Below, piece after piece: positions 8,940 to 63,147 of a stretch of DNA of 64,000 nt. The position numbers and the translations under genes were made by a program. Position 1 is the stretch's first letter, and each line of letters starts with the position of its first letter. Source of the DNA: Botryllus schlosseri (lineage: Eukaryota); the NCBI GenBank assembly GCA_051294905.1, contig CM119371.1:30568001-30632000 (forward strand), in the 5' to 3' direction. The notes under the pieces are model-generated. The model was not told the DNA's origin. It saw only the letters and a program-made list of their open reading frames with translations, and made no database searches.

Positions 8940-9040
8940 CTGGTGCGAATCTGCTGAAGACAGTCAACCGGTGGCTGATTTGAAACATGAAATGAGAAAT
9001 TTTGTACATCACCATCGCCAGGAACAGGTATTTGGATCAA
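8940..9040 (-). CDS. ELL: ELL coding exon 3 (101 nt)
   Basis: ttttcag acceptor, gtaaat donor; LIQIPVPGDGDVQNFSFHVSNQPPVDCLQQIRT fits the ELL IxIP...FSFxxS...DCxQQ pattern; phase 0-2. Confidence 0.88.
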
Positions 9041-11634
9041 CTGAAAAAGAATTATAGAGTCAGAGCGTCACAAACAGGGTATTTCTAGCAGCTAGTTGGT
9101 AAATATAAAATTGGGATCTGGTTGGGCAAGATACTAGAATGAGTGAATATCTAACACTTCAAGTGAAAAGCGTGACTAATTGTAACATAACATTGAAATT
9201 TGATGTTCCCAGGTTCTTTAGGAGATGAGCATTCTTCAAAGAAATGCAGTTTACATGCAACAAGTGATTCATATACTCAGTCAATACAACTAATATGCAG
9301 TGATGAGAAAGTGATACCGTAATTACAAATAATTTTCTTACAACACGCTCCAACAACTGTTACTGATGACCTTGACTCTCGTCAACAAGTAGTGTGTCAG
9401 TCATTCAAGTTCAAATTTTCTGCATGGCAACAATATTCTAGCCCTTTGGGCACTGCCAGAATATATAATTTAATTCAGTTCGAGATTATTCGCCGCTGCT
9501 GCGTTGGTCAATATAATTATTGCAATTTGCTAGATAGCAATGAGCTGTTACACAAGACATAATCTGGGATTTATTTATAAGTTGGTAAATTTAAATTCAT
9601 GCTAATCTCAATTAAAATGTGAAAAATCCATGTCACCATCATCCATTTTGTCCCAAAAAGACCTTGTGACAGCGATGGCCCACCATTAATAGTAAAAATT
9701 TATACGTATTTACAGAGATCATCTAAGCTGCCTCAAACTAAACATGGACCGTAAAGGCTCTTATTCAGAGCACATCAAACATTCATGCACTTACACGGGT
9801 CAAAGAGACATAAAAACCCATGTCCAAGATATAGTTTAAACACTAATAAAGATATATGTTCTAGATCTCAGATCTAGTATGTCAATATATAAATGTTATG
9901 AATAGCCATCATGGTCATAAAATGTCAATATTCTGAAGTTATGCACCAGCTTGTGATTCTCAACTGAAATTAATGCGGATTTTGACAAGGCTAAGTTAAA
10001 CTGTGGATGTTATCAAAGACTTTTCATTACTCATTGCTAAATTATGGAGTTTGTTGATTTGCAGTGCTCTCTTGATATTTATAGTAGCAACTCCCTGCAA
10101 TGTTCAAGATTATGTTACTATTACTTAACTTTCAGGAATAAATATCAGGGAATTTACTATTTATCCAAGAACTGTGTGTCAGACCTTATTTAATCCTATT
10201 TCATGAGTGAAGTCAAATTCCAAGGCATTGCTTATGCTCTAGATTTGATTATAAGGATTAAGCCTGTTTTGACATCCAAACTGAAAGGCAGAGGCATGAA
10301 ATTCAAAGGGAGTTTCCGTGGAACATCGAAAATATACTCAATCACGAAGTGACTGCTCAAATCCGTTGAGAAAATTGTGCTGTTAAAAATAGCCCTAGAT
10401 AAACTAATTACGGCCTGTGTCTGCGTAACTATATGTAAAATTTGGTGTAATTACGGATTTAAATTTCAAGGATAGGTTTGTTTTGAATTCAAAGTGACAA
10501 GATAGTAGATTTTACAAATGAAGCATTTTTAAAGTTATATCTATTATTGGCATATAGCGTATAGTATAGTGTTCGCCTTAGGCCGTATTTAGCAATTTTG
10601 ATAAAATCGTGATTTAGGATTTTCTGACGTCATGGGTTGATAGGCTACCTCTTCAAACTTTCCCAAAATCGACTCAAATACTGACTTCACAACGTTGTTT
10701 TTACTATTTTTATAAAATATTTCTACCACTCAAATTCTACTACACTTTTATCAAAAATCCGCAATCTAGGCCTACAGAAGGAGCTTGTGTACCATCTAAA
10801 CAACAACAGGATCAAGCTTTCTCTTATTCGAAATTTAATGCCCATGAAGTCATATTTTGTGATATGATTGTCGATATACAATGTTCTTTCCAATTCTCTA
10901 CTAGCTGCACTGAAGATTAGCCATGACTACTGAGTACTGACTACTGTCAGCCGAAAATATTTGGGTTCATTTTACTATGCATACTATTCAAGTGTATATT
11001 GGAAGTTCTGCACCTAGAAGAAGCTATTCCGTCACAATGGTTTCCGTATCATATCAATACATAGTAGAAGAGCCAGTCACAAGATTACAAACATATACCT
11101 TTAGCTAACTGTAAAACATATATGATTTATTGTGACATCACATCAAGGATGATATCCTACTGATGCACTGCTATCACCAATATCACAAAGAAAATGACCT
11201 AAGCCAAAGCAGCAAAGTATAGGAGGCAATCTTAACACACACAACACACAACCACTCTAGAGTACGCCTTGAGTAGTGCAATTAGGCAAAACCTAGTTGA
11301 TTATTCCGAAAAACTAGAAGTCCAGCCATCTGTGATCATTTGTAGTGTTAATGATCAATTCAATTTCAAAGACATACCATCTCACATACCATAAGGTGTT
11401 CTATTAGGAGATGGAATTCCAGAATTCTATTGGACAATAGGGGATTTCTGAGAAGGTATGTGTTCACCTGTCAGCGCACTCCACTCAAAGAGATCTACCT
11501 GCAGTATTGAGAAATTCTCAATGGCCGAGCTTAACCTAAGCCTAACCAATCACATGCAAAGGCGGCTTCTGAAAGTGAAACCAAGTGTAATCCAGTCCGT
11601 TCAGGTCAGAGGCTGCAAGGGGATAACTGTGGTT

Positions 11635-12202
11635 AACTTGATATTTTTACAACTTGAGAACAAAACAACACATCACTAGGAACCAGCTTCAGTAATATGG
11701 CACAACAAACCTACTCTTTACCATGCAGGGTATGAAAACATGGAATGAAAAGAGTCCTAACTCCTTGGTTTGCCATCTACGATTCTAAAATGCCCCCCTC
11801 AAAGACGCCAAGCCAAGTAGGCCTAACTTGATATTTTTACAACTTGAGAACAAAACAACACATCACTAGGAACCAGCTTCAGTAATATGGCACAACAAAC
11901 CTACTCTTTACCATGCAGGGTATGAAAACATGGAATGAAAAGAGTCCTAACTCCTTGGTTTGCCATCTACGATTCTAAAATGCCCCTCAAAGACGCCAAG
12001 CCAAGTAGGCCCAACTTGATATTTTTACAACTTGAGAACAAAACAACACATCACTAGGAACCAGCTTCAGTAATATGGCACAACAAACCTACTCTTTACA
12101 ATGCAGGGTATGAAAACATGGAATGAAAAGAGTCCTAACTCCTTGGTTTGCCATCTACGATTCTAAAATGCCCCTCAAAGACGCCAAGCCAAGTAGGCCC
12201 AA
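11635..12202 (+). repeat. Tandem triplication of a ~189-bp unit
   Basis: Units start AACTTGATATTTTTACAAC at 11635, 11825 and 12013 and are nearly identical. Confidence 0.95.
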
Positions 12203-12845
12203 GACAATTGAATATTATGATAGTGGTCAAGCTTTTTGGTGGGTATTGTGAGAAAAGACAGGGAGGTTATGAAACCAAGAGGTCTGGGTTCAAAATAGCA
12301 CCAATAGCATGTTGCACCAAGGGGGAAACGGAGGGTGGTATGGTCAACACTAAACAGGACTGTCATATAGTCCAATTGCAAAGGTCGCATTATTATTCTG
12401 GAGCTTGCGTGTCCTCATAGATAGATTTATTATCTGGTGCTCAATTACTGGACACAGGGGTTAATAATGGGCTTAGAATTGAATCACATCTGTATTCGAC
12501 TTCATCTAGCCCTGATTAGGATATAACGAGTCCTCTTTAATTTACAATACAAAATCATATCATAAAACATTGGGTCAATGTTATCATTCTTCCTAACAGT
12601 AGGCCTGTGAATCCAGGAATGTGTTATTCTTTTCCCAAAACATGGAATCCGCTAAATTGTCTCATTCCTAGAATTATTTCTGCTTTGCTAGAAAGGAACA
12701 ATTAGGAGCAAAATATTTCAAAATTGGTAGGACTAATAGACCATTAGTTTAATGGGATTTGAAGAACGTGCGATAATAGCAGTTATTTCTCGTTTGAGTA
12801 TACGCCTAGCACCTGCATGTTCAAGTGTTACATGAAAGTCTATAT

Positions 12846-13240
12846 CAGTGGTTCCCAACGTGGGCGATATCGCCCCCCAGGGGGCGATTTGGCGATCTAG
12901 GGGGGCGAAAATGACGAAGGGGGCGACAGGGGGGCGAAAATGGACAAAGGGGGCGACGGGGGGCGAAAATAGCGAAGGGGGCGATAGGGGGCGATGACGC
13001 GTAAAAACGGCTGACCTTTTTTTTTTTTTTTTTAGTCATCCACCTAGCAATGCGGAGCGAAAAAACGCCATTTTCAGCTCTGAGCGGAGAAAGATGACCT
13101 TTTTTTTTTTTTTTTTTTTAGTCAACCCGCCGGTGATTACAGTCTGTATGCCCAATTATCGGTCCACAAAATTTGGGGGGCGATGATCGGTGTCGACCTT
13201 GAAAAGGGGGCGATGGGTCGAAAAAGGTTGGGAACCACTG
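12846..13240. mobile_element. hAT (Charlie-like) MITE
   Basis: TIR CAGTGGTTCCCAAC / GTTGGGAACCACTG; perfect 8-bp TSD GTCTATAT; subterminal GGGGGCGA repeats and internal poly-T runs. Confidence 0.92.
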
Positions 13241-14949
13241 GTCTATATGATGGAGAATTCGACCTGTTCTGCATAAACAGGTCACTGTGGTTTGCATCAA
13301 GAGGTTCACAATGTGGCAACTAGGCCTATTCATTATTGTCTTTTTGTAAAATTGAGTATATGTGTAACATAATTTGTAACAGCTACAACCTGAATGGAAA
13401 AGTGGTTAGTGTAATTGTCACAGCTTCAAAGGAAGTAAACCTAAACAAACAGTATCTATAGATTCTGTAGGTACCACACAACAACTGTGACTGTGTTCTG
13501 GACTTCAAAGTTTGAACTTTGGAGATATGTCAACAAGAGCAGTTGAGAGACAATGGTTCAGTTCAAACAGGGGATACCACAGTTTCGAATTACATATGAT
13601 GCAACACAACACCCAATCCCTGCCCCACTATACAAATAATCCGTTATTGGAACACAAGCTTCCTTTGATAGTGCGAAACAATCACTGTTCTGTGAAACCA
13701 AGAACAGTTTCCACTCACAATTTAAATTGTGGAGCATAAGAACAATACCTTGAAGCTACAACCTATCTCACTGTACAATCTAAGCCCAGAATAGTATTGA
13801 AACGTTTCAAAGCATATCATAAACATATGGGAGACTGGTGATTCACGTCACAACATATTATACAGCATCGACTGAAAATATCTGAAGATGGTAAATTTTG
13901 ATGAATAGCAGTGAAATCTAACAGCTCAGCAACTCAGCTGTCTAAAATTCACTTCAGGAGCTTGGCAATAAGTTGATTCAAATTAAAATACATATAGAAG
14001 TATAGAGGTAAGGTATATCACTTCATCAATTGATTTTCTGAGTAAGCTGAATTTGATAATCTAATCAATAAACCACATGAAGATATATCTCTTATCACAT
14101 GTAAGGGAGTTAATATTCATTACATGGGTTATCAACTAAAATTGATATAGCTCAGAACACAATTTCGCCAGGATTTGAAGTTAATTCACAAAAAGAACAT
14201 CAGGCAACTTAAAGGAAAGTCATTATTTCTAACAATATCAAGCCTTTAAAGCACTACTCTTAAAAATACACTTTATCAGAGGTAAACACTTCTCCAATAA
14301 AGTTATCTGTACTAGATTTTTTATATTGGCTTGTTCAGTGACCTCATTTGACATACTCCCTTGTCATAAACTATAGTGCAGCAAGCCTTCAAAAAGGTAG
14401 ACTTTACAAAATGCCAATACAGCAATTTTACTCAGTGCATATACTACATCATTATAACACAGCCAGATTTTTTTATGGATGGATGTGTCTGTAGCATAAG
14501 GGCGAAATGGTATCTCTCTTCCTAAGGCTTACTATACAGCACAAATATTTGATGAGTAATCATATCTGCACCAAGGCTTTCATGGTCTCCATTCCAGTTA
14601 TGATTGGTTCAGGAAGGGGTGACTCAAGGAACAAGGATTACACAACCTCAATCCAGGGGGACTTGACCTACATTAATCTGAATGCTTCATTTTACCTAAG
14701 TACTGTGAAGAAAATGATACAAAATCAGATCTTGTTCAAATCTAGCATACAGTAGCAGTTTGGACGTACAGAATATCAGTAGGTGCAGTGCTACAGATAG
14801 GAATACCTGCTTCCATGTAATAAATAACCCTTAAAAAGTGTAGGTTACACTGCAGATGTCAGGTTTTCCCAGATGCTTGGAAAGTAATTTATAATCGAAC
14901 ATGTTGCTCGAGACTGTGCATATACTTAATCCCTTATGCAAAAACTCAC

Positions 14950-23700: not shown

Positions 23701-24042
23701 AAGCCAACTATTTTTTATTTGCAAATCTACCAAAAATCATCACCTAATACAAGTGGACTTTTAACTAGTTTATAAAATACCAATTATTGGAGCAAACACC
23801 TCATCAAGCACATATAATTGGGGAAAGGGTACGGTACCCACAGCCAGTGCAATTGTGCAAATGCAGTTCATTTTAAATAAATTCATAGACATAGGCTACA
23901 TCAGATTTGTAAATGACTGAAGGAAAAAAAATATTAGTTCCTAATGGCATTAGTGTTCAATATTAATCCTTGACACAAAGCATGATACCGTGCTCCATGG
24001 AATGATGGGAGCCTTAGTTCTATACTTGCAAAATATCCTTAC

Positions 24043-24168
24043 CGGATTGTCAAGGTAAGACTCGATTATCCTCAACGCAGAGTCAGTCAACTTCATCAAA
24101 AGCACGGTCTTGTTGCCGGAATCAACTTGCCGCAGTCCATAGGAGCCACTTTCGAAACTGAGAGACAT
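24043..24168 (-). CDS. ELL: ELL-family RNA polymerase II elongation factor, coding exon 1
   Basis: ATG at 24168; reads MSLSFESGSYGLRQVDSGNKTVLLMKLTDSALRIIESYLDNP, with the KLTDSALR motif typical of the ELL N-terminal domain; GTAAG donor at 24042, phase 0. Confidence 0.9.
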
Positions 24169-26184
24169 CTTTGCGGGATATCGAGGCGATCGCCCCACAG
24201 CGAAATGCGAAAGGTTTAGGGAAGTTTTATATGAACATTAGCAGCCAAACATCTGGTAAATACATACAAAAATATGAGTCTCCCACAATCAATATTTATT
24301 TCCTATGTCATACAATGCCTATATACAGCTGCAAAACAAAGGTCGGTTTTTTTAAATACCAGAGAAGAGAATGATCAATAACCAGACATTCCCTACATTT
24401 TTCTGGTGGATCCCTGAATTATCATGGAAACGCCAATCATAAGCATGAATAATTACGCAGTTTCATAACCACAGGGCGATTTGGTGTAATTTTGTATAGA
24501 GCAGCGATCGACCTTGATCAGAAGGGCACGCTCCGCTACCGACAAGTAAAAACAGCTGTTGACTCCCAGCATAAGCGGAGCGACAACAATAATTATTATT
24601 ACTGTTATCAATACCGCATGTAGACGCTTAACTCGGGAAGCTTTCAGGACACCCCTAACTAGCCGGCACCCGGCCATATATCATAATTGCACAATCGCTT
24701 TCTTCCCAACTGGCGAACTCTGGAAGTGTCGCTACGGTCTGTTAATATTTCAACTTCCAAGAAAAGCCCGCGAATTTAGCTTTATTTTCCTGAGCAATTT
24801 AAAACTGGCTGTGCGGTTGTTACTCAATACATCAGGGATCGTTTCAATTCACTGTTGTTATTTGATAACACCTAGCATAACGGTGAGGCACCTAACCTGT
24901 CTGACCATCAAGCTCGACAGTCGACAGACGCCGCTGGCGAAAACAAACGCGTGCTCTTGAGGAGAAATATACTGATTTGCGCACGTAATGATCCCCTTGC
25001 ATCTTTTTTTATTCGTGATTAATCTTGTTTGTGCTACGGCGTAAAATATTGAGGTCCAAACTACTTCAATAATGCGTAAATATAACAAACGAATTATACG
25101 TATGGATACAGACATCCGATACAATAATTCATCGACAGACTCCGGCGTTTTATGAACACGGGGAGCTGTATTGACGCTTTCTATCTATTCTATATCATTG
25201 AGCCGTGACGTATTCTCCTAAAGGCTGCGCAAATAATATGGGGTAACAGTATCGGTCAAACATCATTGGTAGAGAATCTGGAGTTGTGAAATGGCAATTG
25301 ATTAGGCTTTGAACTTAATGCGACAATTATTCGACAAACTTAATGAATATAAGGTCTGACCACAAATCAAAAGCGCACAAGCTCGACACACGCGTGTCCC
25401 CGTCGTGGTCATTTTCCAGTCCGACCCAAAAAAAGCCCAGCTTGAACATCCTCATTACATATTTCGCTTCATTTATGGTGTTTTTTATGTCGTGCCTGAT
25501 CAGTCTCCTGGCTGTCAAAGCTATGAAGGAAGGCGCCTTGCCACATTTTCGATTTCCTGAAGAAGTAGGACAAATCATGGTAACATGGTAATACCCTACC
25601 TACTAATTAAAGAACGTTACAGGTACGTCGGCCCAAGAAAGCTCACCAATAAGAGGTTATGACAGTTATATGCCAAAGATGTCTCGGACCAGTCACACAA
25701 CTCGGACAAAAACACGTACTTCACGAAAACACGCCATTCTTCAGTGACAATTTACTTTGTCCGTCATCATATTTATAGGCCTAGGCCTACTATCATTTGA
25801 TTTATAGGTCTAGCTCTGTCTGCGTTCAGACCAAGAGCACTATCACCGTGGTGATCGAAGTATCCATCGAAAAAAGACATAGCATCAAGGATTTCAAATA
25901 TAAATTAAATTTCGCGTGAAAGTAGGCTACTGATTTCGAGAATGTCCTGTTGCCGGTGTCGTTCCGTAAGGACATTGTTCATCAGCGTTACAGGAGGGTC
26001 TTCCCTTTTGTTTCTCCTTTCATCTTCAAAGGTTATTGACTTCACGACACTGCCATTAGGTTTTCGAAATATATGTGCAAGAAACTTAGCTTGTCGGTGA
26101 TCAATGAATGATACGAGAGGTCTTCAGTGCGACAGATTTTATGAAGATTTTCATAGCCTACACATTACTAATTTTGAAGGCGTA

Positions 26185-50989: not shown

Positions 50990-52017
50990 TAGGGATGGTG
51001 TGAACCTCTGAATGGTTCAGGTTCGAGTGAACGCGAACCTTTTTGAAAGGTTCAGTGTGAACACGAACGTGAACCTCATGACCCCACGTGACGTCATATT
51101 GGTAATTCTAACCCTGCATTTCAGTGAAGTGATATATTAACGTACAATACGATATCTAGTGACGACGCGGGCCTCATTATGCCACAATGCTGAAGTACAT
51201 ACTGACTTTTTAAAGGTCGCCAAATATATCAACTGGGGCAATAAAATGATATAATTATCCCATAAAATCAATATCTTCCGTCGCTTTGCCAACAATTTCG
51301 ACGAAGACTTGCAAGGGAATATAAGCTTACGCCTTAAACGGTCTATAGGCCAGACCGGACTATGTATTCGGCGTCTTAGTACTGCTACATTGATATTGAA
51401 TAGAATGTAAAAATGGTTTTTATACTTGTTACCTATATCATCCCAATAACAAGTTATACATGAGTTTCCAACACCCCAACCACACCTATTTGTTTTTTTA
51501 TGATACAATACACATATCAAATCAAGATGGTCTCCGTATACGCCTGCTAGATTTTTTACATTTGACAACGATGTATTCTGATATGAATTTCATTGATTGG
51601 TTGAATAAGCATCAGTCGCCGACTATAGGCCTACCTATATGTAGCGTATTTCGCTCTTGATATTGTGTGATTGCGGGTCAAGCTCACAGTAGAGAGTCAT
51701 TAAATATTTAAAAACGGAAAACTGGATGTTTCGAGCAAACTTTTGTAACAAATCAACTAAAATTTTTGAGATTGTCAATGTTGCATGCTCGTTTAGTTTT
51801 GATTTTTTATGCTGTCAGTGCCGTGCATAGAGTGGCCCTCAGTTCAAATGTAATGAATTTTAACCAAAAATGTTAACCAATAACGTGGAAAATTGCAATA
51901 TATGAAAAAGGTTCACAGTGCAGAACCTACCAAGGTTCGTTTGTGAACGTGAACCTCTAAATTTCTGAGGTTCACGCACAGAACGCGAACGTGAACCTCG
52001 CGTTCACACCATCCCTA
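50990..52017. mobile_element. hAT-like MITE with GTGAAC subterminal repeats
   Basis: TIR TAGGGATGGTGTGAAC / GTTCACACCATCCCTA; perfect TSD GTTCCGAC. Confidence 0.93.
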
Positions 52018-52271
52018 GTTCCGACCCAATAGTGGTTTAGATTCTAGGTCTAATTTCTGGTTATGACATAGATCCGGGAAATTCTGTAGCGATTCATCAC
52101 TGATGAATAAATCTCCTTTCACAATGCAGAAATTCGTGGAATCACAAAATACCTATACACATTGCTCAAATATCACGAACGCTAGTATTGGGAAACGAAT
52201 GGATTTCAATTATACCTATGTCGGCGTAACTTCACTGTTCGACAATATCACTCAATCCGACTGTTTTTTAG

Positions 52272-52416
52272 CTGCTGCGAACCCATGTAGTGGCCGGTAC
52301 GAGGGTGGCGATGGAAGCGTTATCCTCATGGTCGACATTGATCAAACAAGCGAATATGCGAAGTCCCTGGGTTTCGTAAGCGGTACCATCGCCAAACCGG
52401 ACCAAGATTCGTCATG
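52272..52416 (+). CDS. Metzincin-type zinc metallopeptidase, first identified exon (true start uncertain; ORF is open back to 52103)
   Basis: ttttttag acceptor, gtgag donor; AANPCSGRYEGGDGSVILMVDIDQTSEYAKSLGFVSGTIAKPDQDSS; ends in phase 2, joining the next exon to give TGG (W). Confidence 0.7.
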
Positions 52417-52897
52417 GTGAGCTGAAATTTTCATCCATGATCGAACATGCGGTACTTGAATTAGAGGGATTATTTATTGATCGCGAGGATCCGAGTCGAG
52501 CAGTATGATGAGAGTCTGATTTTTCGAATACTAACTGTGCTACCCGGAAGAAGAAAAACTATAGCTATTTTATCAACGGGAATTTTCGTATGACACTTAC
52601 ATCCAAGCATGAAAGTCCTGAAACCTTAATGGGCTTTATAATTGTATCAAAAATAGCAAGCGTGGCTCATGACGCTACATGTTTATGACCTCATTGTGTA
52701 GCGACATTGGAAGGAAGCGCTGTAGTCATGGTTTTGTTTAACAAATACAAAATATTTTGTTAAGTTGAAGTTGCCTTATGTTCAATCTGAAAGTTGGAAA
52801 ATGTACGACTATGAACGTTGAAATATATTATTTTTGTGTGTGACGAGATAATGAATTGCAGTCGAATACTTGCCTCAAATTGCTTAAAACTCTATCA

Positions 52898-53173
52898 CAG
52901 TGGTTCTCAAATTATGGGGGGAAGGCAAAAGCATCTGAAAAGGGGCACGACACCGCGGTCAACTAAAAATAAATTCGCTCGCTGTGCGATTTACCTCCGA
53001 ATCATCGTTCTTGCTCTGTATATAATCCAGATTTCATAGTTGTGAATTCTCCCATCAAAAGTTATAACCTTTCATGCCATCAAACTTTCCGTTGGGATTG
53101 CTAGCATTCTAGGTGCATTTTGTGATATGACTCTGATACAGTGGGGGGTGTCTAAGAAGTTTGAGAACTCCTG
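52898..53173. mobile_element. Degenerate Charlie-like MITE in a peptidase intron
   Basis: CAGTGGTTCTCAAA / TTTGAGAACTCCTG ends; no TSD seen. Confidence 0.5.
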
Positions 53174-53485
53174 CAGTCCATCCGGAATCATCAGATATTC
53201 TATTCTGCCCACCTTTGATGTAACACTTGGTGCAGTATTGCTATGAGCCTTTGCCACCCTGAGAAATCCTTACGCAAATCTACAAGCCTGTGACGAACCG
53301 CAAAATTTTTCCGAGTCACAACAACGAGAATCAACCACATTACACATCTAATACGATACCATAGAATACTGTTACACGAAATGAGCTGAATTAACATCAA
53401 GACCAGTAAAATGTGATTTTCAAACAAAACAGAATGCTAACAATGAATATTTACTGCAAATCAGCGAGACCTTGGCTTTATGAGT

Positions 53486-53533
53486 TGTGTGTGTGTGTAT
53501 TTGTGTGTGTATGTGTGTGCGTGAGAGTGTGTG
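53486..53533. repeat. Interrupted (TG)n microsatellite
   Basis: Direct reading. Confidence 0.85.
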
Positions 53534-54192
53534 GAAAGCTAGCGAACCCCTGAGACTGACTCAGGGAATCCTTGAGATCGTGTGAACCCCAGTTACGAAC
53601 CACACAGTCTTCGTGCCAATGGCCAATGAGTTTCTGTACTCCGAGATGTAGTTTACGTCCTCGTTTCGAATCATTACAATTAATAACCCATTCGGATTCG
53701 ATCACTCGAATGCTGGAAATATGTATGTGCATTTAGGGTTGTTCAGATTTGAAAAATTGTCAGGAATCTTCTGCTATTGTGATCCAAATGATGGTTCGGT
53801 ACACAAAAACACTTTTATGAGCAATTTTGGTCATCTTCATCGAGATCTTGCTTCCCCTCAAAGCCCCCAAAGTCAGGCGCCAATTCTCCTACTTATTGGG
53901 GATTCCCCAGACTTTACCAAGCTCATATTGCAAAGCAGTGCTCTGCGATGATGATAGTACCTTTAGTAGAGTTTGCAGTTAAAAACGACCTTCTGTAGTT
54001 GAGAAATATCAAGATAATATATCTTTTGACAATTAGACTTAACACTTAACTACATATGCCAGATATCCCTGTTTCCAAACTTTTACACAAACACAACCCG
54101 CAAACCATGACAACTTTTTGATAATTTCCTGGTGTCAAAGAAACCATGACCATTGACCTTACCAGTTTCCATGACAATCATTACCAATTTAG

Positions 54193-54439
54193 GCCGGCAG
54201 ATGCATCTTCGCTATACTTCAAGATCATTCCGACTACGGTGGTGATATCTGGCTCTGGAAACGTATACCAAGTCGAAGCCAGCACCAAAACCTTCTACAA
54301 CGACGGCACCCGGTGCGGCGGATCTATCACCGCCAATATCCGTTTCGATGGCGACTCCGGAAATTGGAAGGCAGATTTGGAATTGGAAACGCGGGACCGG
54401 CACAAATTGTCTTTCGAAAACTTGGAGCGAAAAAGCAAG
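54193..54439 (+). CDS. Metallopeptidase exon 2
   Basis: tttag acceptor, gtgaag donor; (W)PADASSLYFKIIPTT...FENLERKSK; phase 2-0; more GC-rich than flanking introns. Confidence 0.75.
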
Positions 54440-56461
54440 GTGAAGATCGTTAGGATGATCCGTAACATGGCCAATTAGTGACACACGCATCAAAGTTGTT
54501 ACGACGATATGGCTTGACCATAGAAACATGTGTATTGCAATCGCTTGCACGGACGACGAAACTGAAATCAAATCTCCTGTCGTCACTATTTCAAACTCGC
54601 AATTCGTCAAGGGTCTCCTTATTGTGCTCTGCGGGTCTCATTTGCACCGTGCGGCACAGGCTGCGGTCACAGGGCTATGCGGCGACGGTAATTTCGGAGC
54701 ATGGACATACCAGTATCGAACGTATATTGGCCAACATGTCGCGGTTATTTAATTTCAAGGTTTTATCGCCTCCGTTCATTTTAGCAGCGCACTTCACGGA
54801 ATCGCATGTGGCCGGAAACGTCGTATGTCTTGGTGTCTCCTAGGTTGGAAATCCTCATGACCGAAATGCTGGTTCCTAATATAGTCGTTCTTCCACAGGC
54901 TGCAGTGTACGCACCCCTAGATTAAAACAACCCAACTGCCGCATACGATATTAGCATTCCATTCTCTCATAATTGCTAATACGGTTGGATTCATTTCTGT
55001 ATATCAAGTATATTTAGTATTTTTCCGATAATTATTGGGGGTATGCACAGTAATACGAAGAAATCCAGTTCCATTAAATCGCGCGAAGCGTGGAGTAAAT
55101 TTTCAAAATAAATTGAATCTGCCCCAAAAGACTCTACTTTATGTTGATTTACGAAATAAATTTTATTCACCTTCGAGCTTTTTCCATTTAGAAAACTTCC
55201 GTTTCACTTTTTACAACAAACATGATTATAAGATGTCTTTGTCAATTCATATGGCATGTCATGAAAAATCATCTCGCTTGCCACAAGTGACACGCGTGTC
55301 AGGGCTTGCCGACGCCTGTTCTAACCCAACCCTAACTGTGCTTAAATGTCAAATGCTATTATGTCCCGTGCTTATATGTTCACGGGTCATATTGTTGTAC
55401 TTCGCAAGGATAAGTATGAGTATGTTTGTAAGTTTATTAACTTTAAAACTTTCTCAACCAGAATTAGATAAATGCACTATTGGGGGCATCAAATGGTATT
55501 TACTTGGCTGTGAAAGTACATCTGCGATCATTCACTACTTCAGCCAATACCAAATATCGCCTATTGTTTTTCCGCTATACCGAAGGTCATGCATTCTACA
55601 AACAAAACAACCAATAAGTCTTGCAGTCATCGTTTCAGTTTATATTAAAGAATCGTAGACTTGACTTTTCGAAACGCAAGCAGTCCCACATATACCTGAC
55701 GTGCAGTTTCACTTTGCCTTGAAATGAACAATACTTATGATTTTCCTGCGTAAAGTTTCGCAACAGTATTCATTTACGAAATGACTGTACATCTATCAGC
55801 GACACTATCATGAGTATTTCGATATTTTGATGTGAGCTACGTGCCGTGACTTTGATATGGTGAATATATTCCAGTTTCCATAACTAAAATATCCTTTATA
55901 TTGACCAGGGAAAATGGTTATTTTGGTGTAACTCCGTTATCGGAGACTATATGCCATTACAATATCCGATTATCTGTTACGGGGATTTTTGCATAGATAT
56001 CTGATGAGTGATGACACAATCTTCGGTCTCGGTGACTTAAACATGTGATCGTGTCGATGCAAGACAACGGAAAGTACCCGTGCTTAGAATACGCTTGTTC
56101 CTGAATGCTGAACGCTGGTCACTCTTTGTTGTATATTTTAAGATCATTTTTAATATCATTGGTACTACCAGATATGCATAATGCGTACATATCAAATCAA
56201 TACCGTAAACACCTATTTTATTAAAATTACAGATTGGTATCGGATGGATTCGTGTATGTTTGTGTTTTGTAAAAAGACAGTATAGATGACGAAACAAATG
56301 AAGCAATATTATCGTAAACCTATAATTGTTATCAATTGACGTGAATCGTCCTCATAATTTTGTTGTCGCGTGCGCTCACGCGTGAATAAATACGCCTATT
56401 TTTACCCATGGATTTACGGGACAATTTGCACACGCGTATTCAATGCCCTTTTATCTTCTAG

Positions 56462-56638
56462 TTCTTTCGTAATGTTGGCCTGGACATTGATTACACGGAG
56501 AAGGTGACGTGGCCGGTTGTCGTTGTGAAAAACCTCAACGATCCACCTGCCGGCATGCTGGACCGCAAGATCGACGCGTTTCAGGCTTTTGAAGACGCCG
56601 GGATCAAACTGGTGTACGACGACTCTCACAGTGAAAAG
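56462..56638 (+). CDS. Metallopeptidase exon 3
   Basis: Long polypyrimidine tract plus tag acceptor, gtact donor; FFRNVGLDIDYTEK...AFEDAGIKLVYDDSHSEK; 177 nt, phase 0-0. Confidence 0.8.
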
Positions 56639-57451
56639 GTACTACGCATCTTAAAACCTCTCACGTACACTCCTGCATCAAATCTCTAACCTCGGACATA
56701 GTTAAGGGGAGGGGAAACCCGCCTTTGCCTTTTTCAATTTTCAATTGTCGCAATCAGATTCAGAGGTAGTCAGTAACGAAGATCTTCTACGTTTTTTGAG
56801 TAATCACGTATGTTTTGACAACTTTTACTACTTACCGAATTTGCTATGTCATTTGGCTATGTTTTTATACTAGTTCTACTTCTACAAAACGTTTTCTCAG
56901 AAAAAAAAACTACTTACTTTCTACAATTCAGATTTTCAAAAGTAGAAAGTAGATTAGGGTTGAGTTAGCATCACCTTTCCGAGTGATCTTGTCATCAGAA
57001 CCTAGTCAAATACCCCTTTTATCAAAGTAACTGAATATATTGTCGAAGTTCGCACCTCGTTGTAGTCTCATAATCCAGTTTTGCGTTATTCGCGAAACGA
57101 AATCTTGCATTTTCGAAGTTATGCGCCGTCGATTAACTGCCAGCAGTATGAAACCCATCGACCGAATGTATTTCATTTTCTTCTGCGGCTTGAACTAGTT
57201 TTGTCGTGTCTTGAAAATCACTACTTCTTGCCAAGAAGTTGATAAATACGGCATTATACTTTTTCCATTAGTAGGGCCTATAACAACGCTTACTACTTTG
57301 ACCTACAATTGTCGCAATGAACCCATGACCCCATTGTTTAAAACGGTCATACCTTGATATAGTCACTATATTCATATACGGCTATTTCACCCATCCGTCA
57401 TTCTATTCAACATATAATATCTTTGGCATATGCTTTTCTGTTCATTTTCAG

Positions 57452-57639
57452 CTCGAAGACCCTACCCCGCAAAACCCTTGGACCAAATCCGACTTGTACG
57501 ACGCAATGATGTCGTACTACGACGAGGTTGGAGAGAATGAAAACATTTGGTGCATGATGGGAACAACCCCTCCTGACAAGCGTTACATGGGCTTCTCTTT
57601 TGACAAAGATGGCCGACGGGGGTTCGGTCTGTTCACCGG
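57452..57639 (+). CDS. Metallopeptidase exon 4 (not in the ORF track in this frame)
   Basis: ttttcag acceptor, gtatgt donor; LEDPTPQNPWTKSDLYDAMMSYYDEVGENENIWCMMGTTPPDKRYMGFSFDKDGRRGFGLFT; phase 0-2. Confidence 0.85.
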
Positions 57640-57761
57640 GTATGTAATGGAGTTGGCGTGAAAGCAAAAGTTTGTGTCATAGAGTGCCGATTATCTGAAT
57701 TAAACTTTAAGCTATGACGAAATACATAATTTTAGTTTAAATATCACGCATATGTTTTTAG

Positions 57762-57889
57762 GCATCGCAGCTTTTCCGGGCTAGAATCTCCCGACCCAAA
57801 AAAACATACAGAAGCCTCCCGACGATTCCTCCACTATTTGATCCACGAGTGTGGCCATTGCTTGGGTCTGAAGCACCCCTTTGAAATCG
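57762..57889 (+). CDS. Metallopeptidase exon 5, catalytic zinc-binding motif
   Basis: tttttag acceptor, gtaagt donor; HRSFSGLESPDPKKHTEASRRFLHYLIHECGHCLGLKHPFEI contains HEXXHXXGXXH; phase 2-1. Confidence 0.9.
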
Positions 57890-58012
57890 GTAAGTTCGTT
57901 CGACACTATATATACAATATACATGTTGAATTCGGGAAGCTTCATTGCAAGGAGCAAATTTCGAATCCAACAAAGCGGGACATCATAACCCTGTGTCTTA
58001 TATATATTACAG

Positions 58013-58149
58013 GAGCGCCTAACTCTTTGTCATGGATGAATTACGCTTGGCGGTATGACGTCAGTCGTGACGCAGGCAGCTTCTACCGAGATTTTCGCTT
58101 CACCTTCAGCGATCAGGAGCTGCTGATTCTGCGGCACAGTCCGGAAAAA
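58013..58149 (+). CDS. Metallopeptidase exon 6, Met-turn
   Basis: ttacag acceptor, gtaag donor; (G)APNSLSWMNYAWRYDVSRDAGSFYRDFRFTFSDQELLILRHSPEK; SWMNY is a Met-turn candidate; phase 1-0. Confidence 0.88.
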
Positions 58150-60054
58150 GTAAGATCAAGCGGCCTGGCTTTTTATTACATCATTACATTACATCATCAG
58201 AAAAGTGGATTCAAAGTTTTCGAATATGAATTCCAATTTGGTTCCGTTACAATTGCTGAGGTAATATCGTATCATAGCCGAAGTCCATATGTAATAATAA
58301 TCATTCGAAACACGAATGAGAATTGGGAATTCCCAGAACTTCCATGTTCGCGTCCATATCCAGTTAAAATATTCGAAATACACTCACGACGAAAGCCTTC
58401 AAACCATGTTTTTAAATTTAAATCAAAATCCATGATCTTCTCCGAGAGCAATATATACTGGATGTGAGTATAGATTTGAGCGTCAAGACACATTTTCATA
58501 CAAGACATTATCATATTTTCGTCACTTGATTACCTGATAACTAGTGATTTTTTCAGTGCATAATTCGTATTCCTATTTGAATATATAATTTCGAACTTCA
58601 TACCGTTGGTCGACAGAACTACACCGTTGCCACATACATAATTTGACATAACATAAATTACTAAATGACATGAACATAATTGAAATCAGTAAAAAAGTTT
58701 GGGATTTGAATTGGATTCAAATATCTGATGTATCCAATTCCTTTACTTTGTTAAACACTGATTCGACCTAACAGCGAATTATGTAACTTTAGGCAATAAA
58801 TAGTCCATGGCAAACGGGAGTTCGCCAATTCATGTGAGCCTTCATGAAGCGGCGTATCTTTGAACTATCACTTTTATATCCATCGGATGAAGTAGGATTA
58901 GCTAAGTGCCGGTATTCGCCAAAATATAGTGACTAAACCTCCAGAGTGTGATGGTTCAAATCGGACAAGCAAGCGATATTCGTAGAAACGCCTAGTGTCA
59001 TATCCGTGCTGCGCGAATCTTTTGATTGTTTTGCTAATGCGTGCCGTTCAGTTTCATGAATCAGTTTCAATGCAGGCGTTTTTCTATTCGCTGAGATTGA
59101 TTCATGACTGTGACTCATAAATGATTGATATAATACACATTAATGCGACACCGCTATCCCATTGCGTTCTAAGGAAAATCTGGAACTGGGTAAACTTATC
59201 ATACTAAATGAGGGGCAAAGTAACATGTTTTGATATTTAGATAAATTGGCATCATCGCGTAGGCCTATCTGCTATACAATTCAATCGCGAAAGCACTTCC
59301 CAGAAGAAATCCTTTAATCACCAGAGCATTGTACTGCTTATCCGGTTCTCTATGAGATTACCAACCACAACATCTACCGGATTATGTTTTAAACGTATGA
59401 AATACCAAACATATAACATGAGACGAGGGACTGGTAATCAGTGTGTCCATAGGCATCTAATGCTTCATGATGATGATGAGTATACAACTATACATGTATT
59501 CGTCAGCCAGACATCCAGTGACACTCCAGCAATGAACGTAGACCAACATTTCGTAAATGTAGGAGTTTTAGCTTGGGATTGGCATTAGAATGACCATTAC
59601 TTAAAAGTTTCACTTATCAATGTATTGGTCGTGCATCTTCTGCACTGATAAAAGGTCATCATGTACTAAACGTGTATTTCGATTACAATAAATCACTCAA
59701 TCTTTATTCATTTCTCAGTCTTAGCAAGTAACAAAGTTGTTGAATCGATAGTAACGATATCTTTCCATCGGAGAGATTTTTGATATTGCTTTGTACAACG
59801 TTATAACCTCATTGGTGCATATGAGGCATTTCCTGTAGCAGGACGCGCCTTCGCCGTTCGAAATGGATTACTGATAATGGAGGCAAGTTTGTCGCCTATG
59901 CATGGAAGCTATGTGAGCTGGATCACAGATAAGGCATTAAACAAACTTGAAACGTGCTATGAGTATGCATCAATGCGGACTGACCTTAACACATAAGCAT
60001 ACACGGGACGATATAGACATGGTCTCATGATAAATACAACATCGTCAATTGCAG

Positions 60055-60240
60055 ACCTTTCGCATGGAATGCGACCCATCTTACCTCGCTGAGATCATGG
60101 GTATGGGGTATAACGCGCGTACTGAAGCCCCTGACCATCATATGGATGACGAGGATGACGTGATTGACGAGAAAGGCGACAAGAAAACGAAGTCGAGACA
60201 AGTTGGCCTGGAATTGAAGCTGCGGAACGAATACTTGAAG
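60055..60240 (+). CDS. Metallopeptidase exon 7, charged linker
   Basis: ttgcag acceptor, gtgaaa donor; TFRMECDPSYLAEIMG...DDEDDVIDEKGDKKTKSRQVGLELKLRNEYLK; 186 nt, phase 0-0. Confidence 0.8.
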
Positions 60241-61005
60241 GTGAAATGATTGGTGTACTATCACTTGAAATTTTAGACTAGCTCTGACAGTAGTGACTAT
60301 TATGTTTGTTTTGTCAAGGAATATAGGTGTAGTTTAATGTCTGTAGACAATTATTGCCAAAATTGCCTTGACACAAGATTGTGCTGTCGGTGCCTCGATG
60401 GGCAGGGTTCAAAATGAAACGGCAAATACGAAGATTTCAAGAACACAGCCCCACCAGGGGCATCATCTGAGCATAAAACCGTAACCATCGAAATACCACT
60501 CCCTACGAAAATTTATAATTCCTTTTGGAAGATCGTTGGGTGGTAGTTAAAGTAGACAGGAATTATACTGAAGTAGAAGTAATACCGAGAACCAGTATCA
60601 GTAGGAATTTTCAAATCGTGATAAAACTGTGTCAAGAAGAACTAAGAAATGAAGATATGAAAAGTACTCTCTTACACCAAGTCGTTTCAAGAATGAGATA
60701 TGGTCGGGAGGTAGCGGAAAGCAATCTGCTAATCAAGGGATGAGGGGGGCTATTTTTGAACACACAAGATGCATCCTTGTGATTAACATAAATGATTAAC
60801 ACCACTACACTACTATATCTGAGAACAATAACATGAAACATACAGAATGATACACAAGTAAGACACGAATAACAACCATAAATTCGAGTCGGTTAAAAAG
60901 TGAAATATTTTCTAACAATATATTGTTTAATATCGTTGTTCTTATGGTGTTTGGTATGTTGAATCCATCAAATATCCTGTAACATAATGTTTTTATATCT
61001 TTCAG

Positions 61006-61134
61006 GGTCAATTGCTGAGTTTTGAGGCGACGGTTAACAACAAAGGAAAGTTGCCTGCTTTGATCGAAGGGAATTTGTCTTTGGATTCCGGGAATCTACA
61101 AGTCTACGTCACGAAACCAGATGGAACATCAGAT
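61006..61134 (+). CDS. Metallopeptidase exon 8 (not in ORF track)
   Basis: tctttcag acceptor, gtaata donor; GQLLSFEATVNNKGKLPALIEGNLSLDSGNLQVYVTKPDGTSD; 129 nt, phase 0-0. Confidence 0.8.
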
Positions 61135-62187
61135 GTAATACATTTTCTACGCATTTCTCATCAATATCGATAAGTTTTACCACAACATATATGTATGCAG
61201 GCACAGTTAACCTGGAACTCACATAGCTAAGTTTTCGTTCGTGTTTTCGTAATATGCCTGCTGAGTTTGTGTGAGTTCATTGCAGTTATTCCGCAAAACC
61301 CGTGTGTTCAAAAATACTGCGTTTCCCAGTATTGGAGACAATTGTTTCTAAAAATTATATCTGATGTCATGTTCATCTGGCGAAAATTCGATACCTCACC
61401 AAAATATTGTGATTAAAAATGAACTCTATAATCATTTATATAACAATTGAATGCCGGTTTATTGCTGAGCGTAAAGATACATGCTCCCCTAATCCATGCA
61501 TTTCATACGTAAATGAACGGAGAGCTTACGTGCATAAACAGTGTAGGACTTGATATGCACTTAACGTACTTCCGTAAAACGCGCGTCTGGGAAACTCCCT
61601 CAAGCTCTCCCGACCATATCAGGCACAAAATTATTCGAGTTCATATCTCATGTCTAGTTTATCCGGAAGAAAATATGCAGTCTTGGTAAAACATTGTCAT
61701 TGAAAGTGCACTCGGGTTGTTTTTAATAAAATGAAAATAAATTTCTTTTTGTTGATCGCATAGGTCCTATTTTCCACCGTATATGGGTACATTTCGCTAT
61801 CTGTGAACTGTGAGGTTACGTACCTAAAACAGTGAACTTAATGTCATCTGAACATTAAATGTTCATTGTTCAATATAAAAATACTTTATGGCGCCATGAG
61901 AGGGTTAGGCCGATTACAGTCATGTGTGGGGTGATGTGACATTTACGAATTCGGATAAATGGCACGTCAATAGCGCATTTTGACGTGTCAGACCGAGTAG
62001 AAAGAATTCGGCGATATTCTTTGTTCGTATCTGTCAAGGTGGTGTTGTCACGTCGCTGTAAAACAGGCATTATGTTACCGATAGTTTCCGTTTAGTTGGC
62101 TGTCCCGCATACATATCACGAACCAGAGTTATTTGTACAGATGCCACGCATGTTAGAACAACTGAAACATTACATCATGCGTTTCAG

Positions 62188-62389
62188 GTTATCGAGCCGT
62201 TCGTCAGGCCAGTTCATTCCGGTTACAACAGGCCGGTGGTCCTTTACACGAGTGCCGACGAAGAAGGCGGGGATTCATACAGCGAAATAGTGACCGTTGG
62301 TCGCGGATCCAACGGATACCAGATCAGCGAACCTGGGAAATATGGCATCAGGGTCGTGTACAGCGGTGGGCGGTACACTGTCAGCTCAG
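62188..62389 (+). CDS. Metallopeptidase exon 9
   Basis: gtttcag acceptor, gtgagt donor; VIEPFVRPVHSGYNRPVVLYTSADEEGGDSYSEIVTVGRGSNGYQISEPGKYGIRVVYSGGRYTVSS; phase 0-1. Confidence 0.82.
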
Positions 62390-62596
62390 GTGAGTTTGAG
62401 TGATGAACATTGCACATGCATAAACAAATATTCACCTATATCTATCAGCATCGTAACATCTCGAGATTCCTAGAGGTCGATGGAGATTTCGTTGAACCCG
62501 CAAACGTCTTTTCAATCCCCATATTTATACTGCGAAAAAAACAACATATAAATTCCAAAGTGGGTTGCCTCAAACTTGATAATTCTGTTTTAACAG

Positions 62597-62652
62597 CAAC
62601 TTACGCCTTCGAGGTCGTTGACAATGACGATGATATGGGAATAGCTGACGAG
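62597..62652 (+). CDS. Metallopeptidase exon 10 (56 nt)
   Basis: ttttaacag acceptor, gtgag donor; (A)TYAFEVVDNDDDMGIADE; phase 1-0. Confidence 0.75.
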
Positions 62653-63011
62653 GTGAGATCCGGCCTTTGTGGAATATACTGTGCATGCCGCACTAAACTC
62701 GTCTTCAAATATTGCCGAACCTATCGTTATTCTCATTGTCAAGCATGCATATTTGTGTCGATATCATGGAATGTTCATTCCCTTGATCCAGTGGGTCCTC
62801 AACTATCCCCCTAACATGAAATTAGGCTCTCTTGCTCTTCATTAATGGTAACTAATAAATACCGCATACCAATACACTTTATTCATTCGGGAGCCAGGTG
62901 GCACTCAATGTAGTAGGCTATAAACAAATTGGTGATACACGATCGGATAAAAATTTGAGATAGGCCTACGCTGCTTTAGATGGTGACTAACGCAGTTCAT
63001 TATTACGCAAG

Positions 63012-63147
63012 GTCTTAACGGCCGCGACCTTGCACTCTTCGAATTACACCCGATTCGAAAAGCCGCTGGATTACTTCAAGAAGTTGGAGGGAGAATCCAC
63101 GAAGCAAAAGCGCGGAAAAACGGCGACGTTGATTGCGCTGTTGGAAG
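63012..63147 (+). CDS. Metallopeptidase exon 11; gene probably continues past the window
   Basis: CTAAC branch-like motif at 62987-62991, AAG acceptor, gtacgt donor; VLTAATLHSSNYTRFEKPLDYFKKLEGESTKQKRGKTATLIALLE. An alternative CAG acceptor (exon start 62996) gives a different open frame. Confidence 0.55.

Follow-up and report, generated by a model that had tools for sequence, protein, structure and literature searches.

A metzincin-like module of bacterial type at the N-terminus of a predicted hemocyanin-type phenoloxidase gene in the ascidian Botryllus schlosseri

Ascidian phenoloxidase (PO) acts as a central effector in the inflammation, allorecognition and tunic repair of tunicates. Limited proteolysis activates latent type-3 copper oxidases, and metzincin peptidases are defined by the extended zinc motif HEXXHXXGXXH together with a Met-turn. 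Arthropod prophenoloxidases and the pro-polyphenol oxidases (pro-PPOs) of plants and fungi are described systems of this latent kind. In pro-PPOs, the activating step is proteolytic removal of the C-terminal domain (PMC6563526). PO activity in tunicates is raised by limited proteolysis (PMC9395347), and the way in which the ascidian pro-enzyme is activated has so far been deduced from the arthropod case (PMC5465252). Within the deuterostomes, only hemichordates and urochordates are reported to have beta-subclass type-3 copper proteins (PMC3658974). Published accounts, to the extent of the text available, treat the ascidian hemocyanin-like proteins as arthropod-like PO only, and describe no N-terminal peptidase-like half. 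Here we analyzed a 64,000-nt stretch of the Botryllus schlosseri genome (the window; C1:30568001–30632000, in an assembly of 495.5 Mb in 219 contigs), which is AT-rich eukaryotic DNA with a GC content of 0.34–0.43. Positions 52272–63147 of the window are the N-terminal part of a hemocyanin-type PO gene of the CinPO-1/2 kind. The first-pass annotation, made from the letters alone, had taken them for a separate peptidase gene and a candidate for horizontal transfer from bacteria. This part encodes a zinc-peptidase-like module, and we regard it as very nearly certain that the module belongs to a fused PO gene and is homologous to a bacterial protein family.

All motifs picked out by the first-pass annotation were found within stop-to-stop open reading frames (ORFs) between 52 and 63 kb. 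We set the exon borders with tblastn anchors from a tunicate homologue, P0001 of Styela clava (LOC120329438), followed by a search for frame-keeping GT/AG pairs. This independent reconstruction gave 11 exons (1731 nt; 576 complete codons counted from the third base) with no stop and with GT..AG ends at all 10 introns. Start, end and codon count were identical to those first proposed. The exons are spliced and transcribed: every one of the 10 introns was seen removed, with GT..AG ends, in contigs of runs X1, X2 and X4, which come from three studies. For eight of the joints, two or all three of the runs agree; among these runs, the remaining two joints were seen in X1 alone. The runs behave as RNA, with exon bins covered and introns hardly so; their records only guess RNA.

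The open frame continues beyond the window. A tblastn search of P0001 against the window plus 40 kb gave exon-by-exon colinear matches up to residue 1546, which lies 27,254 nt past the window end. Chaining the best GT–AG pairs yielded a stop-free full model of 27 exons (1488 codons), which has 56% identity to residues 33–1546 of P0001 (1522 columns). The 16 further exons encode the rest of the module (to about residue 720) and the hemocyanin-type part. A separate peptidase gene is therefore not what the locus holds, as the frame runs on through 27 exons into the hemocyanin part. RNA contigs go 42 letters past 63149 without matching the intron, indicating onward splicing from 63147. They also reach 58–71 letters 5′ of 52270, indicating at least one further 5′ exon. 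The gene is ∼39 kb long and has at least 28 exons, of which the window holds 11 internal ones. As for the terminal exons that the first-pass annotation lacked, the 3′ end was traced beyond the window, and the 5′ exon(s) upstream of 52272 were not located.

The same layout is found in other ascidians. A search with the window ORF that carries HEXXH and the Met-turn returned five matches, all ascidian (1501–1546 aa; E 9e-26 to 4e-17), from Styela clava, Ciona intestinalis, Phallusia mammillata and Clavelina lepadiformis (two), hence from four species. All five contain Hemocyanin_C and Hemocyanin_M, and three also Tyrosinase. In P0001 (1546 aa), Pfam places Hemocyanin_M at 870–1083 (E 5.8e-22) and Hemocyanin_C at 1152–1323 (E 1.2e-25) and also reports Tyrosinase (E 2.6e-07), while the window matches residues 31–623. 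The hemocyanin-type assignment of the window gene is made by colinearity with these domains, Pfam having been run on the orthologue P0001. The order module–linker–Hemocyanin_M/C is common to the window gene and the ascidian hemocyanin-like proteins, namely CinPO-1 and CinPO-2 of Ciona, P0001, and P0002 (labelled 'hemocyanin-like protein 1 isoform X2' by NCBI). By sequence, the window gene is the orthologue of P0001 and a paralogue-group relative of P0002 (38% identity), and its predicted product is a hemocyanin-type (arthropod-like, beta-subclass) prophenoloxidase of ∼1500 aa. A second fused copy, with module and hemocyanin-type half, lies ∼180 kb upstream in head-to-head orientation (C1:30414709–30440146, − strand). 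It is 69–70% identical in the best exon and has the zinc motif HECGHCLGLKH and HECGHCLGLKHPFEVG intact.

The module itself has its relatives among bacteria. Residues 1–570 of P0001, searched against shorter proteins, gave three matches, two bacterial by name and one metagenomic. P0006, a Pyrinomonadaceae hypothetical protein of 761 aa, and P0007, a 'zinc metalloprotease' of Nocardia sp. IFM 10818 (719 aa), each cover 94% of the query (E 2.7e-28 and 1.4e-26), and the alignment reaches the bacterial C-terminus at about residue 720 of P0001. The spliced window model matches P0006 with E 7e-45, residues 5–672 against 26–714. With a profile of the three proteins, 928 relatives were retrieved (E ≤ 1e-3). 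Among the 120 that were listed, all are bacterial or metagenomic, none has a Pfam domain, and those named include Pyrinomonadaceae, Nocardia, Methylobacterium, Arthrobacter and Paenarthrobacter. Neither Pfam nor NCBIfam holds a family model for these bacterial relatives. With one genome taken per prokaryotic species, 61 loci were gathered from at least 8 phyla (Acidobacteriota, Actinomycetota, Chloroflexota, Pseudomonadota, Gemmatimonadota, Desulfobacterota, Armatimonadota and Myxococcota). The ESM Atlas gave 23 look-alike clusters at ≥0.9, of which those listed are 87–100% bacterial, and those closest to the module of the ascidians consist of hypothetical proteins from bacteria (675–727 aa). 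Judged from these alignments, the first ∼720 residues are homologous end to end to an uncharacterised bacterial family of ∼700–800 aa. The first-pass annotation had pointed to such a family, and the searches bore it out.

The bacterial proteins (zinc motif HExxHxxNLxH) are 24–28% identical to the ascidian module over its full length and have the same four predicted domains. Motifs common to both are SGRY, D.D, W..EL.D.M, G..FD, RQGF..F, HE.GH, SWMNY and F.F.D.E...LRH. The series singled out from the letters alone (SGRYEG..LMVDID, FFRNVGLDID, AFEDAGI, WTKSDLYDAM, GFSFDKDGRRGFGLF, FYRDFRFTFSDQELLILRHSPE, LELKL, VTKPDG and EPGKY) is present in full in the spliced translation and sits on columns conserved with the bacterial proteins. 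The two groups also differ. The bacterial genes are stand-alone and intron-less, with Asn at the position of the metzincin Gly, whereas the ascidian proteins have Gly there (HECGHCLGLxH), an acidic insertion behind the catalytic domain, and the hemocyanin fusion. Two metagenomic fragments with HELGHCFGLKHP, P0128 and P0203 (174 and 333 aa, from short JGI and Logan contigs), have Gly as in ascidians, unlike the Asn of other non-ascidian members, and fall outside the animal clan in a 97-row tree.

In the spliced translation, the extended zinc motif is matched by HECGHCLGLKH (57844–57876), and the Met of SWMNY is the 13th residue past its last His, just as the first-pass annotation had it. H-E-x-x-H-x-x-x-x-x-H plus the Met is invariant in 30 of 30 sequences of alignment A5 (bacteria and ascidians) and in 28 of 28 of alignment A8 (which adds hemichordates and P0185, a fused relative described below). 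W-M-N-Y is invariant in A5, and the Tyr of the candidate Met-turn is nearly so in A8. At the position of the metzincin Gly, all ascidian rows have Gly, while bacteria, hemichordates and P0185 have Asn. Both paralogues of the B. schlosseri genome keep the zinc ligands, the catalytic Glu and the candidate Met-turn.

Beyond these residues, the module stands outside the named animal metzincin families, as the first-pass annotation had argued. Pfam searches of the nine raw exon-bearing ORFs gave sub-threshold matches only, and NCBIfam gave nothing usable. Scores were 15.6 and 16.4 bits for Peptidase_M10 (cut-off 24), 13.4 for Peptidase_M43 (cut-off 23) and 11.2–14.1 for Peptidase_M66 (cut-off 20.6), with DUF4953 likewise below threshold; no astacin or reprolysin match was obtained from Pfam at E ≤ 1 or E ≤ 0.1. 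The metzincin clan (adamalysins/ADAMs, ADAMTS, archaemetzincins, ulilysin/pappalysins) has in common with the window module the HEXXHXXGXXH motif and the downstream Met. Sequence identity to metzincin structures is 12–18%, the flanking domains differ, and the window module is without the pro-domain cysteine switch and the disintegrin, CUB, hemopexin and TSP1 modules of the named metzincins.

Structure prediction is consistent with a place in this clan. AlphaFold2 models of the bacterial P0006 (predicted local distance difference test, pLDDT, 83) and of P0159 from the hemichordate Ptychodera (pLDDT 85, predicted TM-score, pTM, 0.86) each comprise a beta-barrel, an alpha/beta catalytic domain, an immunoglobulin (Ig)-like sandwich and a helical repeat tail. 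The catalytic domain of P0006 (157–391) aligned with ADAM17 at Z 11.5 (176 aa, root-mean-square deviation (rmsd) 3.9), with archaemetzincin at Z 10.9 and with ulilysin at Z 10.5. That of P0159 aligned with adamalysin 1dth at Z 11.0 (167 aa, rmsd 4.1) and with ADAM8 at Z 10.9. Comparisons of the catalytic domains with adamalysins/ADAMs, ADAMTS, archaemetzincins and ulilysin gave Z 9.6–11.5 over 163–180 residues, above unrelated rows, and no single metzincin family was prominent among the structural matches (VIA-align). The Ig-like domain resembles Bacillus subtilis Ipi, a protease inhibitor (Z 9.6 and 9.2), and the AsaP1 pro-domain (Z 9.6 and 8.9), and the helical tail resembles TPR proteins. 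Foldseek with the whole 761-aa model returned low-TM multi-domain matches only (Amuc_1438, OgpA, PAPP-A and GH3 enzymes). The catalytic domain of the module is thus predicted to have the metzincin fold.

To see where else the module occurs, we ran an exhaustive phmmer search of 1.84 billion representatives with a 115-aa window ORF, which includes ∼41 intron-derived residues. There were 77 matches at E ≤ 1e-3. Named among the 30 examined were Nocardia crassostreae, Kineococcus, three hemichordates—Saccoglossus kowalevskii (618 aa), Ptychodera flava (700 aa) and Glandiceps talaboti (514 aa)—and one Vigna repeat protein. The Vigna protein (P0132) was rejected as a plant member, being a spurious match to the intron-derived part of the query. 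P0185 (1481 aa; an ENA cluster of 5 members, on contigs up to 3.2 Mb) is likewise fused to a half of hemocyanin type. Its module is 29–34% identical to ascidians and 35–38% to hemichordates, has Asn in the zinc motif, and matches P0006 with E 1e-66, as against 4e-39 to 7e-45 for ascidian proteins; P0185 may represent a less derived state of the fusion. Within the limited reach of these searches, the module was found in eukaryotes only in ascidians, the three hemichordates and the P0185 lineage. No other eukaryote and no archaeon appeared in three large searches or among the 23 nearest ESM Atlas clusters. The first-pass annotation had looked for a patchy animal distribution, and this was seen; the broad presence across metazoans or opisthokonts that would have told against it did not appear in the same searches. 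A gene domesticated in one animal proved too narrow a reading: the gene is intron-rich and spliced, but other ascidians, hemichordates and P0185 have the module too.

Phylogenies were built with FastTree (127 and 97 rows), with IQ-TREE under LG+G4 (59 rows) and under LG+C20 PMSF (40 rows). Ascidians formed one group in all four trees, divided into two paralogue lines that each include Clavelina, and the window gene was sister to Styela. In the 40-row tree, the 10 animal rows made up one clan with 100% SH-aLRT support; inside it, ascidians (100) and hemichordates (99) were each recovered, with P0185 unresolved. The second fused copy in B. schlosseri and the two ascidian clades fit two ancient paralogues.

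Bacterial origin is the most economical reading of these data. An early deuterostome would have taken up a complete bacterial gene ahead of the ascidian radiation and of the duplication that gave the two paralogues, and probably ahead of the hemichordate–chordate split. The gene would then have gained introns and fused in frame in front of a resident hemocyanin-type PO. We consider this course of events likely. The transfer, if any, was ancient rather than recent: because ascidians, hemichordates and P0185 carry the module in one clan, it predates the ascidian radiation and probably the hemichordate–chordate split, and a recent transfer into a single species is ruled out on the same ground. 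Since the tree is unrooted and the animals form a single clan, nesting cannot be claimed. The case for a direction from bacteria to animal lies in the distribution (hundreds of clusters from 8 or more bacterial phyla versus two deuterostome phyla and P0185), not in the topology. Integration into the host is evident from confirmed spliceosomal introns, a site inside a 41.8-Mb contig and the presence of a paralogue. The Saccoglossus protein aligns with P0001 to residue 768, past the end of bacterial homology, and its model may be cut short. If P0185 and this linker remnant mean what they seem to, the fusion itself would date to early deuterostomes. The hemocyanin half of P0001 found no match by tblastn in the 61 bacterial loci, which indicates that the copper domain was not co-transferred from these neighbours.

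What the module might do is suggested by its partners. A tblastn search of the 61 bacterial loci with one tyrosinase placed a tyrosinase directly adjacent to the family gene in five, all from Acidobacteriota: downstream and convergent in L020, L021 and L022, upstream and on the same strand in L009 and L010. Pfam confirmed Tyrosinase (PF00264) with PPO1_DWL and DUF7868 in four of the five, the fifth (L020) being a contig-end fragment with no Pfam match. The acidobacterial neighbour is thus predicted to have the layout of a latent polyphenol oxidase. The groups from which beta-subclass type-3 copper proteins are reported are the same two that hold the module. Tyrosinase adjacency, the ascidian fusion to a type-3 copper oxidase, this coincidence of groups and the proteolytic activation of PO together suggest the module as a PO-processing protease.

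We tentatively propose, at somewhat less than even odds, that the module works as a zinc endopeptidase and serves to process or activate the latent PO, in cis or in trans between subunits. Latency would then be relieved by limited proteolysis, as in arthropod prophenoloxidases and plant and fungal pro-PPOs. Arthropods use separate proteases for this step, such as clip-domain serine proteases, whereas the window gene has a metallopeptidase-like module, with this predicted role, in the same polypeptide. The zymogen would bring along its own activator and, once released from morula cells, could fire by auto- or trans-proteolysis, with no need of an arthropod-style serine-protease cascade. Acidobacteriota would show this partnership too, with the family gene standing directly beside a latent tyrosinase that has a C-terminal shielding domain. 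A broader version, in which the family is the dedicated activating protease of latent type-3 copper oxidases from Acidobacteria to chordates and the ascidian zymogen activates itself, seems to us more doubtful than this.

Taken as a whole, the explanation offered here (a fused PO gene with a bacterial-type module, acquired by transfer and serving the proposed role) has in our estimate a probability of about 0.6. Several observations count against it. With respect to the fusion, no read in this genome spans the module–hemocyanin junction, which lies beyond the window; the RefSeq models of the three hemichordates are unfused, at 514–700 aa; and the original Ciona cDNAs reportedly fell far short of 1500 aa, which would allow for separate products. 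With respect to expression, almost no reads of the raw RNA run X23 (∼6% of the run) fell on the exons. With respect to the peptidase assignment, Asn replaces the metzincin-consensus Gly in bacteria, hemichordates and P0185, and the structure models are of bacterial and hemichordate homologues, not of the window protein. With respect to origin, the animal clan joins between two bacterial groups in an unrooted tree, which leaves nesting within bacteria undemonstrated, and of the three eukaryote-wide searches two were word-index searches and the exhaustive one used the 115-aa query with its intron-derived residues, so that distant eukaryotic relatives could have been missed. With respect to role, the tyrosinase neighbour is confined to a single phylum (5 of 61 loci) and the other bacterial contexts examined are unrelated; that tyrosinase has a twin-arginine export signal, the peptidase-like protein no obvious signal; and ascidian PO activation has been attributed to serine proteases (PMC5465252).

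Serine proteases being the published activators, the module could be bacterial and fused but no longer proteolytic, acting instead as a pro-region, a chaperone, a shield, or a recognition or oligomerisation module. Its Ig-like domain, with the likeness to the Ipi inhibitor and the AsaP1 pro-domain, and its TPR-like tail would suit such a part. Yet dead enzymes usually lose catalytic residues, and the zinc ligands, catalytic Glu and Met-turn are invariant in the 30- and 28-sequence alignments and kept in both paralogues. We regard loss of activity as unlikely, though not far-fetched, and continue to favour a working peptidase.

A different history would need no transfer: the gene could have been present in early eukaryotes or metazoans, been inherited vertically and been lost almost everywhere. 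The tree, which cannot be rooted, does not speak against this, and the split between hemichordates and ascidians inside the animal clan is compatible with the species tree. The gene is also intron-rich, with at least 26 introns, and convergent loss has been offered for genes common to deuterostomes and microbes by Simakov et al. 2015, who describe that class (PMC4729200). However, many independent losses would be needed, given the lack of any other eukaryote or archaeon in the three large searches or the 23 nearest ESM Atlas clusters. Moreover, the family numbers at least 928 clusters in bacteria, from 8 or more phyla, and the animal proteins retain the entire bacterial four-domain layout. We judge vertical descent unlikely, and keep to an ancient transfer from bacteria. 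In its patchy occurrence in animals and its clear bacterial relatives, the window gene is like the genes of Simakov et al. 2015 and the tunicate horizontal gene transfer (HGT) genes CesA, GH6-1 and rusticalin (PMC4729200, PMC10334666, PMC6339383). It is not named in the main text or two supplement files of Simakov et al. (PMC4729200), and a 2026 survey of tunicate HGT (PMC13390645) mentions no hemocyanin, peptidase or protease in its main text and one supplement.

Domestication of a stand-alone bacterial metallopeptidase gene in one animal lineage is very improbable. The bacterial homology it invokes is real, and the hemichordate RefSeq models are indeed stand-alone, but exon 11 is followed by no stop, RNA contigs splice on from 63147, the open frame reaches the hemocyanin part through 27 exons, and P0185, the paralogue and five other ascidian proteins show the same fusion. 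An artefact, be it bacterial contamination or two neighbouring genes merged by prediction, is scarcely credible even though the database proteins are automatic predictions, for the locus sits within a contig of 41.8 Mb, its module is interrupted by 10 confirmed spliceosomal introns, its GC content (38–43%) matches that of the surroundings, it has a paralogue, and the model built from its DNA keeps one frame across the junction.

The fused gene thus remains the preferred account, and it bears on several questions. For the PO activation step, it offers a concrete candidate, namely a conserved zinc-peptidase-like module whose active site is intact and which is part of the PO polypeptide. If the transfer is true, a whole-gene, four-domain bacterial acquisition joins the short list of microbial-origin candidates in deuterostomes and tunicates, here with the acquired gene joined to an immune gene already in the genome. 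For a bacterial family of at least 928 clusters from 8 or more phyla, a first functional lead also comes from the fusion and the tyrosinase neighbourhood. The combination of a metzincin-fold peptidase, a deuterostome gene of microbial origin and a PO zymogen is unusual. Full-text searches, which did not take in the primary papers of Immesberger & Burmester 2004 and Ballarin et al. 2012, turned up no description of the module and no paper joining hemocyanin, metzincin and ascidian. The long ascidian forms are visible in public databases as automatic predictions.

The exons in the window, all on the + strand, follow the predicted domains. The beta-barrel begins in 52272..52416 (tblastn anchor, P0001 residues 31–82), with SGRYEG...LMVDID; RNA contigs show the acceptor at 52272 in use, so this is at least the second exon of the gene. 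Its joint to the next exon, 52415/54192 (GT..AG), was seen in X1, X2 and X4. The remainder of the barrel is encoded by 54193..54439 (residues 84–161), and with joint 54437/56460 both sides of this exon are covered by the same three runs. The catalytic domain opens in 56462..56638 (residues 163–222, 63% identity), with FFRNVGLDIDY and AFEDAGI, and continues in 57452..57639 (residues 221–286, 76% identity), with WTKSDLYDAM and GFSFDKDGRRGFGLF. Joint 56636/57450 occurs in RNA contigs, and the joints of exon 57452..57639 were found in three runs. The zinc-binding motif, at the coordinates given above, is in 57762..57889, and the Met-turn candidate SWMNY (58030–58044) is in 58013..58149 with FxFxFSDxEL..LRH; joints 57638/57761 and 57888/58012 are both present in RNA contigs.

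Downstream of the catalytic domain, joint 58149/60055 (three runs) leads into 60055..60240 (residues 367–441), which holds the acidic linker and the onset of the Ig-like domain, with LELKL. Joint 60238/61004 was seen in X1 and in two raw reads of X23. The Ig-like domain extends through 61006..61134 (residues 445–495, 67% identity; VTKPDG) and 62188..62389 (residues 488–558 plus border search; EPGKY..VVYSGG), which are linked by joint 61134/62188 in X1 and X2. It ends, together with an acidic stretch, in the 56-nt exon 62597..62652, placed by border search against P0001. The last exon in the window, 63012..63147 (residues 575–623), starts the helical TPR-like tail, and its donor at 63147 is in use. 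Joints 62386/62594 and 62650/63010 were each seen in three runs.

Some features of the surrounding DNA were recorded as well. Intron 1 contains a GT/CA-type dinucleotide microsatellite at 53482–53534, which ORF translations render as VCVCVC or HTHTHT. Just 5′ of the first confirmed exon, the summed depth of contigs from the RNA-like runs is very high at window positions 51000–52300, reaching thousands in X2. Variant contigs, loose ends and unusual joints are numerous there, which is the picture that an expressed interspersed repeat would give; a 150-aa ORF within this stretch (51137–51589, − strand) has no Pfam match. In the hemocyanin-type half, one intron of ∼6.4 kb (L005–L006, 18,170–24,602 nt past the window end) is far longer than the others.

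Around the bacterial genes, no conserved operon was found in ten loci, the neighbours varying among Tex, CBS, UvrB, helicase-nuclease, ABC transporter, EutBC, M64 peptidase and NB-ARC/TPR proteins. Upstream of the tyrosinase in two acidobacterial loci, the stretches L021 8205–10298 (−) and L022 2524–4545 (−) resemble, in their C-terminal part, the DUF7868-like C-terminal domain of the tyrosinase itself (36–40% identity in second tblastn segments), which suggests a duplicated gene for a shielding or caddie-like domain. In L007, from a Pyrinomonadaceae metagenome-assembled genome (ORFs 323–3133, 8300–11065 and 11634–13697), the flanks hold an NB-ARC/TPR (STAND-type) plus DUF4062 protein, a Trypsin_2 plus PLDc_2 protein and a clostripain-family peptidase. 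This neighbourhood recalls defence or protease islands and was not seen in the other nine loci examined.

Elsewhere in the window, Pfam searches of ORFs of at least 95 aa in positions 1–52000 left 32 of 33 without a match. The remaining one, a 95-aa frame at 23953–24237 on the − strand, matches the N-terminus of the RNA polymerase II elongation factor ELL (PF10390, E 2.3e-05, 24.5 bits, cut-off 22.9) and is probably an exon of a neighbouring gene.

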